From: Elusimicrobia bacterium HGW-Elusimicrobia-3
GTDB lineage: Bacteria; Elusimicrobiota; Elusimicrobia; Elusimicrobiales; UBA9959
NCBI GenBank assembly: GCA_002840355.1
Contig: PHAL01000003.1
Span: 7,808 to 71,807, forward strand
DNA length: 64,000 bases
Reading direction: 5' to 3'
Part shown: in pieces, positions 12,044 through 20,735 of the stretch
Layout: each line of letters starts with the position of its first letter
Numbering within the stretch: the first letter of the stretch is position 1
The notes under the pieces: model-generated
The model's database searches: none
What the model saw: only the letters and a program-made list of their open reading frames with translations
What the model was told of the DNA's origin: nothing
Position numbers and translations under genes: made by a program

Positions 12044-13096
12044 ATGAAAATACTGATCACAGGTTCAAGCGGCCTCATCGGCGGCGAAGTGGCGGATTAT
12101 TTCGCCTCCAAAGGCCACGCCATAGTGGGCGTGGACAACAATATGCGCGCCGACTTCTTCGGCCCCGGCGGCGACACGTCCTGGCGCACCGAAGAGCTGA
12201 AAGCGAAGCACAAGAATTTCCGCCATTACGCCACCGACCTGCGCGACCGGGCCTCCGTGCTCAAGCTCGTAGAGGAGATAAAACCGGACGCGGTCGTGCA
12301 CTCCGCGGCCCAGCCCAGCCACGACCTGGCCGCCTCGCGCCCCTTCGACGATTTCGACGTGAACGCGGTCGGCACGCTGAACATGCTGGAGGCCGCCCGC
12401 CGCCACGCGCCGGAGGCCCCCTTCGCCCACATGTCAACCAACAAGGTGTACGGCGACGCCCCCAACCGTATAAAGCTCAAGGAACTGGAGACCCGCTGGG
12501 ACTACGACGACCCGGCCTACGCCCACGGCATAGCCGAGAATTTCACCATAGACCAGTCCAAGCATTCCATCTTCGGCGCTTCCAAGGTGGCCGGCGACGT
12601 GATGGCGCAGGAGTACGGCCGCTACTTCGGCATGAAGACCTGCTGCCTGCGCGGCGGCTGCCTGACCGGTCCCAACCATTCCGGCGTGGAGCTGCACGGC
12701 TTCCTGAGCTACCTGGTGAAGGCCAACTACGAGGGCAAGCTCTACAAAGTGTTCGGCTACAAGGGCAAGCAGGTGCGCGACAATATCCACTCCCGCGACG
12801 TGGCCCGCTTCATAGAGGCCTTCATCGCGGCCCCCCGCAGCGGCGAGGTGTACAACCTCGGCGGCGGGCGCGGCAACTCCTGCTCGGTGCTGGAAGCCTT
12901 CGAACTGGCCGAGAAGTACACCGGGAAAAAGATGAATTACGAGTACGTCGACAAGAACCGCGAGGGCGACCATATCTGCTACATCTCGGACCTGCGCAAG
13001 ATGCGGGCCCATTACCCGGGCTGGGACATCACGATACCCCTGGAAGATATCTTCCGGGAGATAGCCGAGGCCTGGGCCAGGAGGACGGCAAAGTGA
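12044..13096 (+). CDS. NAD-dependent epimerase/dehydratase (extended SDR, CDP-paratose 2-epimerase-like)
   Basis: '[14 protein letters not shown]' Rossmann motif, 'STNKVYGD', and a Y..K catalytic region. Confidence 0.8.
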
Positions 13097-14184
13097 AAGT
13101 ACTCATCACCGGCGTCTGCGGTTATGTCGGCAGCCGCATAGCGGCCCGCCTGGCGGAAGCCTCCCGGGGAATGGAGATCTTCGGCGTGGACAACCTCTCG
13201 CGCCGCGGCTCCGAAACCAACCTGCCCTTTCTCGAGCAGCGCGGCGTCCGCTTCTTCCACGGCGACGTGCGCCTGGCCGAAGACCTGGACGCCCTGCCGC
13301 AGGCCGACTGGGTGGTGGACTGCGCGGCCAACCCGTCCGTGATGGCGGGCCTGGCTCCCGGCACCGCCACGCCGCAGCAGCTGACCGCCATTAACCTGGG
13401 CGGCACGCTGAACCTGCTCGAATATTGCCGCCGGCGCGTCAGCGGCCTGGTGCTGCTGAGCACCAGCCGGGTCTACTCCGGCTCCGCGCTCAACGCCATC
13501 CCTTTCAAAAAGACCGCGACCCGCTTCACCCCGGCCGGGCGCGGCCTGCCGCCCGGCTTCACGGCCCGCGGCGTGGCCGAGAGCTTCTCCACCGCGGCGC
13601 CGCTGTCCCTCTACGGCGCCACCAAGCTGGCCTCCGAGGTGATGGCGCAAGAGTACGCCTGCGGCTTCGATTTCCCGCTGTGGATAAACCGCTCGGGCGT
13701 GATAGGCGGCCCGGGCCAGTTCGGCAAGGCCGACCAGGGCATCTTCTCCTACTGGGCCTGCGCCTATGCCCTGGGCCGGCGGCCGAAGTTCATCGGCTAC
13801 GGCGGCCGCGGCCTGCAGGTGCGCGACTGGGTCTCCGCCGAGGAAGTGGCGGAGCTGATACTGAAGCAGCTCAAATCCCCCTCCGCGAAAGCGCCCCGCA
13901 CCGTCAATATCGGCGGCGGGCAGGATAATTCCATGTCGCTGCGCGAGCTGGACGATTTCTGCCGGGATTTCTTCGGGGCCTCCGGGAAGACGGCGGGCGT
14001 GGCGGCCACGCGCCCCAACGACGTACCGTACTACGTCACCGACGCCGCGCTGGCGCGGCGGCACTGGGGCTGGAACCCCTCCGAGTCGAACGGGGCGCGC
14101 CTCGAGCGCACCTGCCGCTGGGCGCTGGAGAACCAAGAGCTCATAAAGCGCTGGTGGGACGGCGAAAAGACGGCTACAACATGA
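13093..14184 (+). CDS. NAD-dependent epimerase/dehydratase (extended SDR, CDP-paratose 2-epimerase-like)
   Basis: '[14 protein letters not shown]' and '[16 protein letters not shown]' (compare 'DNLSRKG' in RfbE-type epimerases). GTGA overlap with the upstream gene. Confidence 0.8.
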
Positions 14185-18245: not shown

Positions 18246-19443
18246 GAAATATTTCGTGCCCGGCGTACTGGCCGTCTCTTTCCTGGCCCGGGCCGCTTAC
18301 GCCCTCTATACGGGAAACGCCTTCATTTTTCCGGACGAAGGGGTATACCATGGCCTGGCCCGCAGCATGCAGACCTCACCCGATTGGGGAGGCCTGTTCC
18401 ACAACCGGGAACCTCTTTACCCCGCTCTGATCTGGCTAACCTACAAAGTCACCGGGCCGTTCCCGCTAGCCGTGAAACTGCTGCAGGCCGCGCTTTCCAC
18501 GGCCTCCGTTTACCTGCTTTACAGGACGGCCGCGGGCCTCTTCGGCCGCGGCGCCGGCCGCCTCGCGCTGCTGGCCGCCGCTTTCTACCCCTTCACCATT
18601 TTTTATGACGCTCGCCTGCTGCGGGAGAACCTCCTGGTCTTCCTCGGCGTCGCCGCGCTCTACTTCGCGCTTAAACCGGGCGGCACGGTCCGCGGCACGG
18701 CCGCCGCCTCGGCCATAGCCGGCATAGCCGTCATGGCCAAGACCATCTTTCTCTTCTACTGGCTGCCGGTACTGCTGGCGGGCCTGGCCTTCAGGAAGCT
18801 CAAGCCTGCCGCGGCGCTGGCCGGCGCGGCGGCCTTCCTGGCGGCTGTTTCCCCCCTGCTCATCTACAATTATTCGCACACCGGCAAAGCTTTCCTTACC
18901 AGGGGACAGATGCACAATGTCTATGTCCCGATCATACTGGACATGGACATTCCAGGCAGCCCCGGCGAGAACGAGGCCCTCCTGGCCATTCCGCATTACA
19001 AAACCGGCATGGCCCTGCCCGAAGCGGAGCGGGACGCCTATTTCAAGCCCCTGATACTGGAGGAGATCCGGCTGCGGCCGGGGAATTTCGCCCGGCGCTG
19101 CGCCTGGCGCTTGCTCAAGCTCTGGCGCCCCTACCCGCACAGGGGCATGAACTACGAGGCCGGCTCCTGGGCCCTGCTGACCGCGGTCAGCCTGCTCAGC
19201 GACGGCTGGCTGATCCCGCTGGGCTTCTGGGCGGCGTTCGCGCTGCGCCGCAGAATAGGCGAGCTTTACCCTGTCTATATTTACGTACTTTCCTTCACGC
19301 TGATATACTCTCTGTCGTGGAGCCAGATCCGGTACAGGCTGCCGCTCATGCCGGCCCTGCTGCTGCTGGCCGCCCCGCTGCTGGCGGCCGCCGCCGCACG
19401 GCTTAAGCTGGATTTCTTTAAGGAAGACCTGAAAAAATGCTAA
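18232..19443 (+). CDS. GT-C fold membrane glycosyltransferase (ArnT/PMT-like)
   Basis: About 400-aa polytopic membrane protein with an early 'FPDEGVYHGLA' periplasmic loop motif, similar in style to ArnT/PMT_2 proteins. ATG 18232 overlaps the GT4 gene by 14 nt. Confidence 0.65.
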   Translation: MENAKKYFVPGVLAVSFLARAAYALYTGNAFIFPDEGVYHGLARSMQTSPDWGGLFHNREPLYPALIWLTYKVTGPFPLAVKLLQAALSTASVYLLYRTAAGLFGRGAGRLALLAAAFYPFTIFYDARLLRENLLVFLGVAALYFALKPGGTVRGTAAASAIAGIAVMAKTIFLFYWLPVLLAGLAFRKLKPAAALAGAAAFLAAVSPLLIYNYSHTGKAFLTRGQMHNVYVPIILDMDIPGSPGENEALLAIPHYKTGMALPEAERDAYFKPLILEEIRLRPGNFARRCAWRLLKLWRPYPHRGMNYEAGSWALLTAVSLLSDGWLIPLGFWAAFALRRRIGELYPVYIYVLSFTLIYSLSWSQIRYRLPLMPALLLLAAPLLAAAAARLKLDFFKEDLKKC

Positions 19444-20735
19444 AAACCGACACTCTCATTATCGGCGGCGGCCTGGCCGGCCTCTCGGCCGGACTGGCCC
19501 TGGAAGGCAAGCGCCCTTACCTGATAGCCGAACGCGAGTGCCGCCCCGGCGGCCTCGCCGCCACGGTGAAGAAGGGCGGCTTCCATTTCGACTACTCCGG
19601 CCACCTGCTGCACCTGCGCTGGCCCGAGACCACGCGGCTGATACTGGGCGCGCTGAAGGGCAACTGCTCTCGCATAAAGCGAGACGCCAGGATCTACGCC
19701 CACAAGAGCTGGACCCCTTACCCCTTCCAGGCCAACCTCTCCGGCATGCCGGCCAAGGTCAAATCCGAGTGCGTCAGCGGCTTCCTCAAGGCCTACGCCG
19801 CGGGCGGCGGGCCCGGCGACGGCACCGAGCCGTTCAGCCGCTGGACGCGGCGCGTGTTCGGCGAGGGCATCTCCCGGCATTTCATGCTGCCCTACAACGC
19901 CAAGCTCTGGCGCTACCCGCTGCAGCGGCTGACCACCGAGTGGTGCGCGCCTTTCGTGCCCATGCCCAAGCCCGAGGAAGTTATCGCCGGCGCCTACGGC
20001 AAGAAGGCGGAGGGCCTGGGCTACAACACCGTTTTCCATTACCCCAAGACCGGCGGCATAGGCGCTCTGGCTAACGCTTTCGCGGCGGGCCTCGGCGGCC
20101 TGCGGCTGGGCCTCGAGGTGGAAAGCCTGGACCTGAAGAAGGGCGTGGCGCAGGTGCGCCATTTCGGCCCGGTGCATTTCAGGCGGCTGATAAACACCTC
20201 CCCGCTCGACTCTTTCGTGGCGATGGCGCAGGACGCGCCCGTTGCCGTGCGGCGCGCCGCGGCCGCGCTGCGCCACAACACGGTCTACGTGCTCAACCTC
20301 GGCGTGCGGGGCGTCAAGAGCGACCTGCACTGGGGCTATTTCCCCGGCGAGGAATTCCCGTTCTACCGGGCGGGCCTGGCCTCGAATTTCTCGCGCCGCC
20401 TGGCGCCGCGCGGCTGCGCCTCTTTCTATATAGAGCTGGCCACCGCCGGCGAGGCCGTGGACCTGGCCTCGGCCGAGACCGAGATCCTGCGGGGGCTGAA
20501 GGCCTGCGGCCTCATAAAGAGCGCCGGGCAGGTAGTGGAGCGGCTCTGGCTGAAGATTCCCTGCGCCTACGTGGTCTATAACCGCGAGCGCGCCGCCGCC
20601 CTGCCGGTTATCTTCGACTGGCTTAAAGCGCGCCGGGCTCTTTCCATAGGCCGGTACGGGGCCTGGAAATACTCCTTCATGGAAGAGAGCGTGAAAGAAG
20701 GCCTGGCAGCCGCGGCGGCCGTCCTGAAGCGCTAG
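19437..20735 (+). CDS. FAD/NAD(P)-dependent oxidoreductase (amine-oxidase / UDP-galactopyranose-mutase-like fold)
   Basis: 'LIIGGGLAGLSAGL' dinucleotide motif and 'GGLAAT...GFHFDYSGHLLH'. Overlaps the upstream gene by 7 nt. Confidence 0.75.
   Translation: MLKTDTLIIGGGLAGLSAGLALEGKRPYLIAERECRPGGLAATVKKGGFHFDYSGHLLHLRWPETTRLILGALKGNCSRIKRDARIYAHKSWTPYPFQANLSGMPAKVKSECVSGFLKAYAAGGGPGDGTEPFSRWTRRVFGEGISRHFMLPYNAKLWRYPLQRLTTEWCAPFVPMPKPEEVIAGAYGKKAEGLGYNTVFHYPKTGGIGALANAFAAGLGGLRLGLEVESLDLKKGVAQVRHFGPVHFRRLINTSPLDSFVAMAQDAPVAVRRAAAALRHNTVYVLNLGVRGVKSDLHWGYFPGEEFPFYRAGLASNFSRRLAPRGCASFYIELATAGEAVDLASAETEILRGLKACGLIKSAGQVVERLWLKIPCAYVVYNRERAAALPVIFDWLKARRALSIGRYGAWKYSFMEESVKEGLAAAAAVLKR

Follow-up and report, generated by a model that had tools for sequence, protein, structure and literature searches.

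The 64,000-nucleotide stretch of contig PHAL01000003.1 (Elusimicrobia bacterium HGW-Elusimicrobia-3) analyzed here, which we refer to as the window, contains a block of seven genes at positions 12044-20735. The genome derives from groundwater, and the rSAM1 and SDR1 proteins of the block (see below) are 100% identical to proteins of this bacterium. They encode two extended short-chain dehydrogenases/reductases (SDR1 and SDR2), two predicted B12-binding (class B) radical S-adenosylmethionine (SAM) enzymes (rSAM1 and rSAM2), a family 4 glycosyltransferase (GT4), a membrane glycosyltransferase of the GT-C type and a homolog of UDP-galactopyranose mutase (UGM). We give about even chances to the view that the block forms the distal part of an operon for an envelope glycan, whose products would synthesize a sugar, tailor it by radical SAM chemistry and install it, and we have less confidence in each individual step of the scheme. 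SDR1 and SDR2 would convert a common nucleotide sugar into the required donor, and GT4 would load that sugar onto a membrane-anchored acceptor at the cytoplasmic face; rSAM2, joined by rSAM1 in Elusimicrobia, would then carry out a radical modification of the attached sugar. The GT-C enzyme would decorate an envelope acceptor on the outer face from a polyprenyl-phosphate-linked donor, and the UGM-like flavoenzyme would supply a furanose sugar nucleotide. The radical chemistry would most likely be C-methylation, by analogy with MoeK5 and its lipid-linked sugar substrate, with an HpnJ-like rearrangement of the carbon skeleton as the alternative.

Class B radical SAM proteins are among the largest enzyme groups without assigned reactions, and the few members with sugar substrates belong to pathways for antibiotics or hopanoids. 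Full-text searches of the literature found no description of the present gene combination, and neither a curated family nor a solved structure was found for it, in agreement with an earlier annotation of the window made without database searches (hereafter the sequence-only reading), which knew of no characterized envelope-glycan pathway of exactly this composition. We regard the block as a variant of radical-SAM glycoconjugate tailoring, not as a separate category.

Recurrence of rSAM2 and GT4 across phyla

The core of the module is the pair of rSAM2 and GT4, which recurs across phyla. A metagenome scan seeded with an rSAM2 alignment yielded 80 loci, of which the 42 with at least 8 kb of flanking DNA were counted; 24 loci carrying distant rSAM1 paralogs served as the control. 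A gene for any GT4, GT-C, GT2 or SDR protein was present within 6 kb in 38 of the 42 rSAM2-family loci versus 15 of the 24 control loci. The same distance held a GT4 gene in 24/42 versus 5/24 loci and an SDR gene in 26/42 versus 9/24, and a GT-C gene was found within 10 kb in 15/42 versus 0/24. Another B12-binding radical SAM gene lay within 3 kb in 20/42 versus 15/24 loci, and a UGM homolog within 10 kb in 2/42 versus 1/24. Orthologs of the block GT4 (42-85% identity) stand beside rSAM2-family genes in 28 loci, many of which lack the SDR pair. A sugar-directed role of the radical SAM proteins is supported by these counts and by the envelope-glycan cluster around the block (see below), and the glycan role proposed in the sequence-only reading is thereby upheld.

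The 120 rSAM2 homologs among the matches listed are all at least 45% identical to rSAM2 and come from several phyla; their hosts include Omnitrophota, Endomicrobiia and the cultured Geoanaerobacter pelophilus. The rSAM1 orthologs that are at least 60% identical belong to Elusimicrobia where an organism is given, and outliers were found in a Micrarchaeota genome (51%; the gene is at a contig end and its neighborhood is uninformative), on an unassigned contig (46%) and in an Altiarchaeales genome (42%).

The complete order SDR1-SDR2-rSAM1-rSAM2-GT4-GT-C-UGM-MtgA occurs only in three loci of close relatives, L006 (Elusimicrobia GWC2_61_19), L045 and L046; conservation as a unit, which the sequence-only reading had proposed as a check, thus holds for the core across phyla and not for all seven genes together. 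Elsewhere the components are arranged differently. The order in L001, L009 and L048 is GT-C(780 aa)-SDR1-SDR2-rSAM2-GT4-rSAM1 with a third radical SAM gene in addition, that in L044 is rSAM-GT4-SDR1-SDR2-GT-C(411 aa)-rSAM2, and L008 has just GT-C-GT4-rSAM1. In G. pelophilus (L039), rSAM2-GT4-PMT_2 is accompanied by a convergent SDR2-SDR1 pair, with identities to the window proteins of 47% for rSAM2, 51% for GT4, 46% for SDR2 and 66% for SDR1 (which has the motif LFGASK). One Altiarchaeales contig has a gene with a lysylphosphatidylglycerol (LPG) synthase domain beside an rSAM2-like gene and, farther on, GT4, rSAM1 and PMT_2 genes. Orthologs of SDR2 adjoin SDR1 in L001, L006, L009, L039, L043, L044 and the Azospirillum brasilense plasmid locus L129, and the SDR pair is a frequent sugar-nucleotide feeder of the module. 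Orthologs of the block GT-C are found in L045 (83%), L006 and L046 (65% each) and L055 (40%), and non-orthologous PMT_2 proteins of 411-780 aa occur in L001, L008, L011, L039 and L044; a PMT_2-type GT-C enzyme is therefore a frequent but non-orthologous partner of the core. The UGM-like ortholog and the adjacency of mtgA were confined to L006, L045 and L046, which are close relatives, and these two genes, like rSAM1, are lineage-specific additions.

On A. brasilense plasmids, an SDR2 ortholog (39%), an SDR1 ortholog (56%, LFGASK) and an rSAM2-related protein are encoded contiguously. The latter is 30% identical to rSAM2 and has the N-terminal GSRWPH motif in common with it, and the triad lies between large glycosyltransferase genes. 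A contiguous SDR pair and rSAM2-type gene were also found in L092, L114 and L117, with differing glycosyltransferases. The known O-antigen of A. brasilense Sp7 was checked for an unusual sugar that might account for the triad; its reported repeat contains just Gal, GlcN, Rha and Fuc and gave no lead. The rSAM2 family is thus tied to GT4 and envelope sugar genes in many phyla of anaerobes and in some of aerobes, and since some hosts can be cultured (G. pelophilus, and A. brasilense for the related triad), a role on envelope sugars is open to genetics and glycan analysis.

The least probable of the readings that we considered is that the radical SAM substrate is a tetrapyrrole, a hopanoid or another lipid chain rather than a sugar, with the glycan neighbors being coincidental. 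Partial matches to the BchE, HpnJ, HpnR and ladderane-lipid models speak for it, as do arrays of B12-binding radical SAM paralogs in other Elusimicrobia, since arrays of this kind have been associated with nitrogenase-like genes. However, all of these family matches are far under their cut-offs, no hopanoid (hpn) or bch genes are present among the annotated window genes, and the association with glycan genes, including the GT4 ortholog in 28 loci, crosses phyla and exceeds the control. The arrays themselves (Elusimicrobia loci L016, L017, L021, L022, L024, L033 and L034) consist of four to seven consecutive paralogs without GT4 or GT-C genes. They may correspond to the suites of B12-binding radical SAM genes in groundwater Elusimicrobia, which have been discussed only beside nitrogenase-like paralogs (bioRxiv 10.1101/765248).

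The radical SAM proteins and their chemistry

Both radical SAM proteins have the class B layout, namely B12-binding (PF02310) and Radical_SAM (PF04055) domains above gathering scores and a CxxxCxxC motif. The two domains are detected with E values of 5.5e-26 and 5.3e-23 in rSAM1, which carries CPHQCTFC, and of 3e-17 and 3.2e-18 in rSAM2, which carries CPYRCDFC. Judged by domains and motifs, then, both are class B enzymes; a B12-binding domain alone is no proof of cobalamin use, as the AprD4-like proteins illustrate. The two proteins are merely 30% identical and are therefore not recent tandem duplicates, which qualifies their earlier description as tandem class B paralogs while leaving the class assignment in place.

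Among the NCBIfam models, rSAM1 scored best with BchE (TIGR02026; 213.9 bits, cut-off 481.35) and second best with HpnJ (195.3 bits). The best model for rSAM2 was HpnJ (TIGR03471; 217.1 bits, cut-off 577.6), with ApyD next (180 bits) and BchE at 130.3 bits. The scores of the two proteins were 129 and 73 bits with HpnR (cut-off 650), 122 and 86 bits with PhpK (cut-off 600), 156 and 126 bits with Sden_1168 (cut-off 575), and 83 and 77 bits with KedN5 (cut-off 700); the AprD4 model gave 78-85 bits for both (cut-off 500), and the models for TsrM-type enzymes, for C-methyltransferases of ribosomally synthesized and post-translationally modified peptides and for ladderane-lipid radical SAM proteins stayed below their cut-offs as well. 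Both proteins are thus far under the BchE, HpnJ, HpnR and ladderane thresholds, and the firm clustering with non-sugar radical SAM families that the sequence-only reading had named as grounds for its refutation was not seen. The top match in the PDB for both was AprD4 (6fd2; E values 1.4e-18 and 2.4e-18), in an alignment restricted to the radical SAM core; the PDB matches included no BchE or HpnJ entry. Pairwise, rSAM2 is 28-30% identical to plasmid-borne annotated HpnJ proteins and 27-28% identical to BchE.

A neighbor-joining tree of 42 sequences and 468 columns places rSAM1 and its orthologs in a clade with 99% bootstrap support within a diffuse radiation of archaeal and bacterial proteins. 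The clade of the rSAM2 family, to which a protein from Eleftheria terrae and the rSAM2-like proteins encoded in L004 and L011 also belong, is supported at 95-97% and adjoins HpnJ, with BchE outside. This placement points to a substrate that is either a sugar or a small group linked to a nucleotide or a lipid. It does not settle the choice between methylation and rearrangement, because HpnJ falls into one cluster with the methylases MoeK5 and Fom3 at a stringent threshold of a published sequence similarity network (PMC9204698). The C-methylated product put forward in the sequence-only reading is not borne out by the sequence comparisons: the best-scoring curated models, BchE and HpnJ, represent non-methylases, and it is HpnJ next to which rSAM2 falls in the tree. 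Nevertheless, we lean toward C-methylation because most characterized class B radical SAM enzymes are methylases and because MoeK5 and Fom3 are network neighbors of HpnJ (reviews including PMC9204698); an HpnJ-like rearrangement is a serious competitor all the same.

One of the closest known arrangements is that of HpnJ and HpnI (with HpnK), which make the cyclitol ether of bacteriohopanetetrol, where, as in the block, a class B radical SAM gene adjoins a glycosyltransferase gene. The proposed substrate of HpnJ is a sugar that has previously been joined to a membrane lipid and that the enzyme would remodel, and ring contraction of lipid-linked sugars has been proposed for both HpnJ and Cds (reviews including PMC9204698). 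By analogy, GT4 would glycosylate a membrane lipid, rSAM2 and perhaps rSAM1 would contract or rearrange the ring to give a carbocyclic, cyclitol-like head group, and an SDR might reduce a keto intermediate. We consider this quite unlikely as a full account of the block. In its favor, HpnJ heads the curated models for rSAM2, ranks second for rSAM1 and adjoins rSAM2 in the tree; gene neighborhoods point the same way. In a true hpnJ locus, on the Paraburkholderia graminis plasmid (L126, 5866-9606), hpnJ is followed by hpnI and then by a gene for a membrane protein with an LPG-synthase domain, and this trio is echoed in L004 and L011; the LPG-synthase-domain gene flanks distant rSAM1/rSAM2-like pairs in L004 (7752-8696), L005 and the Altiarchaeales contig L011 (130-1131). 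The LPG-synthase-domain protein may therefore be an accessory membrane component, perhaps a flippase, that these systems have in common. (In the bchE locus examined, bchE is followed by bchJ.) The E. terrae relative, with its PIG-L deacetylase and GT4 genes, recalls HpnK and HpnI. On the other hand, the score of rSAM2 is far under the HpnJ cut-off, identity to true HpnJ is approximately 29-30% over 75% of the protein, and the network neighbors of HpnJ include methylases. Furthermore, a GT4 enzyme takes the place of HpnI in the block, a deacetylase is missing from it, no hopanoid genes were found among the annotated genes of the window, and the block adds two SDRs, a GT-C enzyme and a UGM-like gene.

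A broader version of this idea, which we also regard as unlikely, is that rSAM2 and GT4 with SDR2 and SDR1, the latter carrying Phe in place of the catalytic Tyr (see below), constitute a widespread unrecognized pathway, in which an HpnJ-related radical SAM enzyme would rebuild the carbon skeleton of envelope sugars, either by contracting the ring to a carbocycle or through a different C-C rearrangement, and SDR1 would represent a new Tyr-independent catalytic type. If the carbon-skeleton reading were true, the formation of cyclitols or carbasugars would reach well past hopanoids and the calditol lipids of archaea.

The SDRs, the glycosyltransferases and the order of steps

SDR1 and SDR2 (33% identical to each other) match Pfam Epimerase at 9e-42 and 9e-30, respectively, and the top PDB matches of both are the CDP-tyvelose 2-epimerases 9rl0 and 1orr (7.7e-44 and 8.6e-38 for SDR1; 8.4e-30 and 2.2e-29 for SDR2). 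The NAD-binding glycine motif and the catalytic Thr and Lys of TyvE (1orr, 9rl0) are common to both. In CDP-tyvelose 2-epimerase, the catalytic triad is Thr124, Tyr164 and Lys168, the segments TNK (124-126) and VAM (83-85) are essential, and the N125A and K126A substitutions abolish activity (PMC13098431, a structural paper from 2026). In alignments read by eye, SDR1 keeps TNK and has PSH at the position of VAM; in SDR2, TNK is replaced by TSR and VAM is not kept. The full tyvelose-epimerase signature is therefore present in neither, while the earlier label of paratose-epimerase-like SDRs is fair in view of the nearest solved relatives. No CDP-sugar pathway genes were found in the window. None of the block genes was identified as a 4,6-dehydratase (SDR1 scores 108 bits with the dTDP-glucose 4,6-dehydratase model, cut-off 365), and, with the tyvelose-epimerase signature incomplete in both SDRs, the deoxysugar proposed in the sequence-only reading gains no direct support.

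SDR2 keeps the catalytic triad (LYGATK). In SDR1 the triad is Thr-Phe-Lys instead of Thr-Tyr-Lys, with HSIFGASK aligned to HSPYGCSK. The Phe at the position of the catalytic Tyr, in the context S[LIV]FG[AC]SK, is present in 119 of the 120 best SDR1 homologs (out of more than 8000 matches), which are each at least 72% identical to SDR1 and come from several phyla. We found no description of this Phe-type variant in the literature; SDR1 belongs to a subfamily of highly conserved sugar-nucleotide SDRs without the textbook catalytic tyrosine. Homologs of SDR1 also occur with no radical SAM gene nearby, in Burkholderia, Deinococcus and Acaryochloris, where they adjoin genes for glycosyltransferases and for UDP-glucuronate decarboxylase or UDP-glucose dehydrogenase. 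Carbamoyltransferase and methyltransferase genes precede the SDR1 homolog in L042, and one Burkholderia homolog lies inside a nonribosomal peptide synthetase cluster.

Two SDRs beside two radical SAM proteins bring to mind apramycin biosynthesis, in which AprD4 acts as a radical diol dehydratase together with the ketoreductase AprD3, an NAD(P)-dependent enzyme acting on the sugar. It is improbable that the block contains two such pairs that deoxygenate sugar hydroxyls. Although AprD4 is the best solved-structure match of both rSAM1 and rSAM2, that match is confined to the radical SAM core and the score with the AprD4 model is well under those with BchE and HpnJ; moreover, the numbers of SDR and radical SAM genes are not paired across loci, and SDR1 is without the catalytic Tyr expected of a reductase.

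GT4 has the Pfam domains Glyco_trans_1_4 (7e-26) and Glyco_transf_4 (6e-17), both above gathering scores; its top PDB match is PimA (9e-13), with BshA-like and MshA-like structures also near, and it reached no NCBIfam equivalog. By its domains it is a standard two-domain GT-B enzyme of the retaining GT4 class. The GT-C protein matches PMT_2 (1.4e-9; 38.8 bits, cut-off 26.1) and Glyco_transf_22 (1.8e-5), has several hydrophobic segments and carries FPDEG at residues 33-37, a DE motif that follows the first hydrophobic segment. These features assign it to the PMT_2/ArnT/PMT-type GT-C enzymes, although it has no sequence match in the PDB or NCBIfam. In Arn-type and other GT-C systems, a sugar is tailored in the cytoplasm, and a multi-pass GT-C enzyme then acts on the outer face with a polyprenyl-phosphate sugar as the donor. 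The window resembles them in the PMT_2 protein of the block, with its DE motif, and in the ArnB-like DegT and GT2 genes upstream. The block GT-C is short by comparison (403 aa), no formyltransferase, decarboxylase or deformylase is present, and the known Arn pathway has no radical SAM steps.

The seventh protein, described as an FAD oxidoreductase in the sequence-only reading, can be assigned more precisely. It has the Pfam domains NAD_binding_8 and Amino_oxidase, and phmmer searches of the PDB retrieved the UGMs of Aspergillus fumigatus (3uka; 1.7e-39) and Trypanosoma cruzi (4dsg; 3e-37); residues 5-425 align with the latter almost end to end. On this evidence it is a homolog of eukaryote-type UDP-galactopyranose mutase rather than a generic oxidoreductase. 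The GxGxxG, GGH, PYPFQxN and W..YF motifs are conserved, as are the C-terminal W-x-Y and the arginine of PFYR (alignment read by eye), whereas the residues aligned with the mobile-loop Arg182 and with Tyr334 are both Phe. Most of the UGM active-site residues that could be placed in the alignment are thus retained. The protein differs from eukaryote-type UGM in being shorter by approximately 80 residues and in having a bacterial host, and its best NCBIfam models are PRK07208-type "hypothetical" models, below cut-offs.

We put radical tailoring at or after sugar transfer by GT4 because the adjacency of rSAM2 and GT4 is the most constant feature of the loci, often without the SDR pair, and because HpnJ, the nearest characterized relative in the tree, is proposed to act on the product of the glycosyltransferase encoded beside it. 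The sequence-only reading had it earlier: the SDRs and both radical SAM enzymes would act on a nucleotide sugar to give a doubly C-methylated deoxysugar, which GT4 and a periplasmic GT-C enzyme would then transfer. We hold this to be unlikely. The prevalence of methylases in class B is in its favor, as are the contiguous triads of A. brasilense, L092, L114 and L117 and the company kept by the SDR1 homologs that have no radical SAM partner, where glycosyltransferase and UDP-glucuronate decarboxylase genes are typical of nucleotide-sugar enzymes. However, the distributions of rSAM1 and rSAM2 are separable and rSAM2 is alone in most loci, so double modification is not a property of the module; the block has no identified 4,6-dehydratase, many rSAM2-GT4 loci have no SDR pair, and GT-C enzymes do not use nucleotide sugars. 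To our knowledge, the B12-binding radical SAM enzymes shown so far to C-methylate sugars (GenK and MoeK5) act on assembled glycosides and not on NDP-sugars, which also argues against this order.

Several observations weigh against our own preferred reading, that of an envelope-glycan operon with radical tailoring after GT4. In the contiguous SDR-SDR-rSAM2 triads it is the glycosyltransferases that differ from locus to locus, and modification of a nucleotide sugar before transfer fits these loci equally well. The polyprenyl-phosphate-sugar synthases that have been characterized are, as far as we know, GT2 and not GT4 enzymes, and the GT2 genes lie outside the block. The activity of SDR1 is uncertain because its canonical catalytic Tyr is replaced. 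Neither rSAM1 nor rSAM2 reaches the curated cut-off of any NCBIfam family, and the characterized references in our tree are HpnJ and BchE, with no methylase; the phylogenetic placement for which the sequence-only reading had called thus covers these two families. Finally, the adjacency of the GT-C, UGM-like and mtgA genes is kept only in close relatives and may reflect inheritance rather than function.

Operon structure and flanking genes

The block is filled by seven open reading frames (ORFs) on one strand with near-zero spacing (Table 1). Their third-position GC content (0.80-0.90) is on par with that of other convincing genes in the window, and the ORF calls, this composition and the Pfam domains agree in confirming the seven same-strand genes and the domains listed in the sequence-only reading. 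SDR1 and SDR2 overlap as GTGA (13093-13096) and SDR2 and rSAM1 as ATGA (14181-14184); one base separates the rSAM2 stop (ending at 17101) from the ATG of GT4 (17103), GT4 and GT-C overlap by 14 nt provided that GT-C starts at ATG 18232, and GT-C and the UGM-like gene overlap by 7 nt (19437-19443). All of these had been noted earlier. The remaining junction was revised: the longest ORF of rSAM2 begins at GTG 15560, which overlaps the rSAM1 stop as GTGA, but the N-termini of rSAM2 homologs read MKFFLFNPLYSS and align with MSFFIFNPLYSS, which in the window starts at ATG 15584. The true start is therefore most likely ATG 15584, judging from this alignment, with a 20-nt gap between rSAM1 and rSAM2. 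The overlaps fit translational coupling. Scans of positions 6500-22600 for consensus promoters and terminators gave matches at chance level, and no Rfam family (e.g., a cobalamin riboswitch) or tRNA was found in the window.

Table 1. Genes of the block and other features of the window
Feature	Position	Strand	Remarks
WecA/MraY-type transferase gene	2068-3105	-	Upstream of block
Second PMT_2 GT-C gene	6975-8588	-	537 aa
Putative SAM-dependent methyltransferase gene	8545-9441	+	Weak Pfam Methyltransf_25 match, E=4.6e-4, below gathering score
NodU/CmcH-type O-carbamoyltransferase gene	9529-11415	+	Pfam Carbam_trans_N 2.6e-97, Carbam_trans_C 4.6e-71
Small SxtJ-like membrane protein gene	11648-12016	+	Pfam SxtJ E=4.5e-5, at gathering score
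SDR1	12044-13096	+	Extended SDR; Pfam Epimerase
SDR2	13093-14184	+	Extended SDR; Pfam Epimerase
rSAM1	14181-15563	+	Predicted class B (B12-binding) radical SAM, narrow clade
rSAM2	15584-17101	+	Predicted class B radical SAM, broad conserved family; longest ORF from GTG 15560
GT4	17103-18245	+	Predicted GT-B fold glycosyltransferase
GT-C	18232-19443	+	Predicted PMT_2 type membrane glycosyltransferase, 403 aa
UGM-like flavoenzyme gene	19437-20735	+	Homology to eukaryote-type UDP-galactopyranose mutase
mtgA (monofunctional peptidoglycan glycosyltransferase)	20756-21628	+	TIGR02070 198.3 bits, cut-off 182.65; Pfam Transgly 2.4e-53
LptF and LptG genes	35722-37927		Downstream of block
Very long ORF	38059-43389	+	1776 aa; third-position GC 0.93
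Third PMT_2 gene	46880-48079	-	399 aa
Very long ORF	49473-53747	-	1424 aa; third-position GC 0.85
SPASM-domain radical SAM gene	59764-60963	-	Radical_SAM 1.2e-26, SPASM 9.4e-9

The co-directional unit probably extends past both ends of the block, to the three genes at 8545-12016 upstream and to mtgA downstream, which begins 20 nt after the UGM-like gene on the same strand. The SxtJ-like protein has two hydrophobic segments, and its gene stops 27 nt before SDR1; the order carbamoyltransferase-SxtJ-SDR1 is also found in L045 and L054. The methyltransferase gene (third-position GC 0.75) ends 87 nt before the carbamoyltransferase gene and is probably in the same transcription unit as the block. 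Farther upstream, in addition to the WecA/MraY-type gene, are genes for RmlD, a 237-aa GT2 protein, a DegT aminotransferase and a 328-aa GT2 protein; downstream, mtgA is followed by housekeeping genes and then by those for LptF and LptG. The block is thus situated within a larger envelope-glycan cluster in an envelope-assembly neighborhood.

The gene types found between the carbamoyltransferase and GT4 genes (9529-18245), namely an SDR epimerase, a glycosyltransferase, a NodU-type carbamoyltransferase and a B12-binding radical SAM protein, are also those used to build unit F of moenomycin, whose MoeK5 (with MoeE5, MoeGT1 and MoeM5) C-methylates a sugar on a membrane-anchored phosphoglycolipid. 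The likeness to the MoeK5 system is one of gene types and of the clustering of MoeK5 with HpnJ in the published similarity network. The product might by extension be a secreted or membrane-bound bioactive glycolipid, with mtgA as a target-related or resistance gene, which we judge very improbable. A weak match of SDR2 to MoeE5 (6kv9), the position of mtgA immediately after the block and the Burkholderia SDR1 homolog within a nonribosomal peptide synthetase cluster are consistent with it. However, no prenyltransferase, phosphoglycerate-lipid genes, further series of glycosyltransferases or exporter were seen among the annotated window genes, mtgA adjoins the block in close relatives only, and the WecA-like, RmlD, DegT, GT2, PMT_2 and more distant LptF and LptG genes are typical of envelope assembly and not of a Streptomyces antibiotic cluster.

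Other features of the window include two further PMT_2 proteins (537 and 399 aa), which are at best 27% identical to the block GT-C over 95 residues. The 5' ends of the longest ORFs of the divergent PMT_2 and methyltransferase genes overlap by 44 nt (8545-8588), and at least one of the two starts is therefore probably internal. The GC content is approximately 0.605 at positions 6000-10000, below that of most of the window. The two very long ORFs have no Pfam match at E<=1e-5, and the same is true of several ORFs in 53752-58402. The SPASM-domain radical SAM gene is apparently unrelated to the block.

Relatives of rSAM2 were also found in other settings. On an E. terrae plasmid (L125, 9627-18468), whose host is a cultured aerobe, an rSAM2-family protein (39%) is encoded together with a PIG-L deacetylase, an NAD(P) oxidoreductase, a WecB/TagA glycosyltransferase, a second cobalamin-dependent protein, an epimerase and two GT4 proteins. 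A 27-kb plasmid of Lawsonia intracellularis (L128, 2455-16055) carries an HpnJ-level relative of rSAM2 (30% identical) whose neighbors are galE, GT2 genes, another radical SAM gene and six genes for class I methyltransferases; this looks like another uncharacterized sugar-tailoring cluster, in this case in a pathogen. In L040 (15095-18357) and L041 (15176-18603), a run of GT4-rSAM2-GT4-SDR-SDR is followed by genes for a Memo-AMMECR1 fusion, a GT2 protein and a protein of the amino-acid-kinase family.

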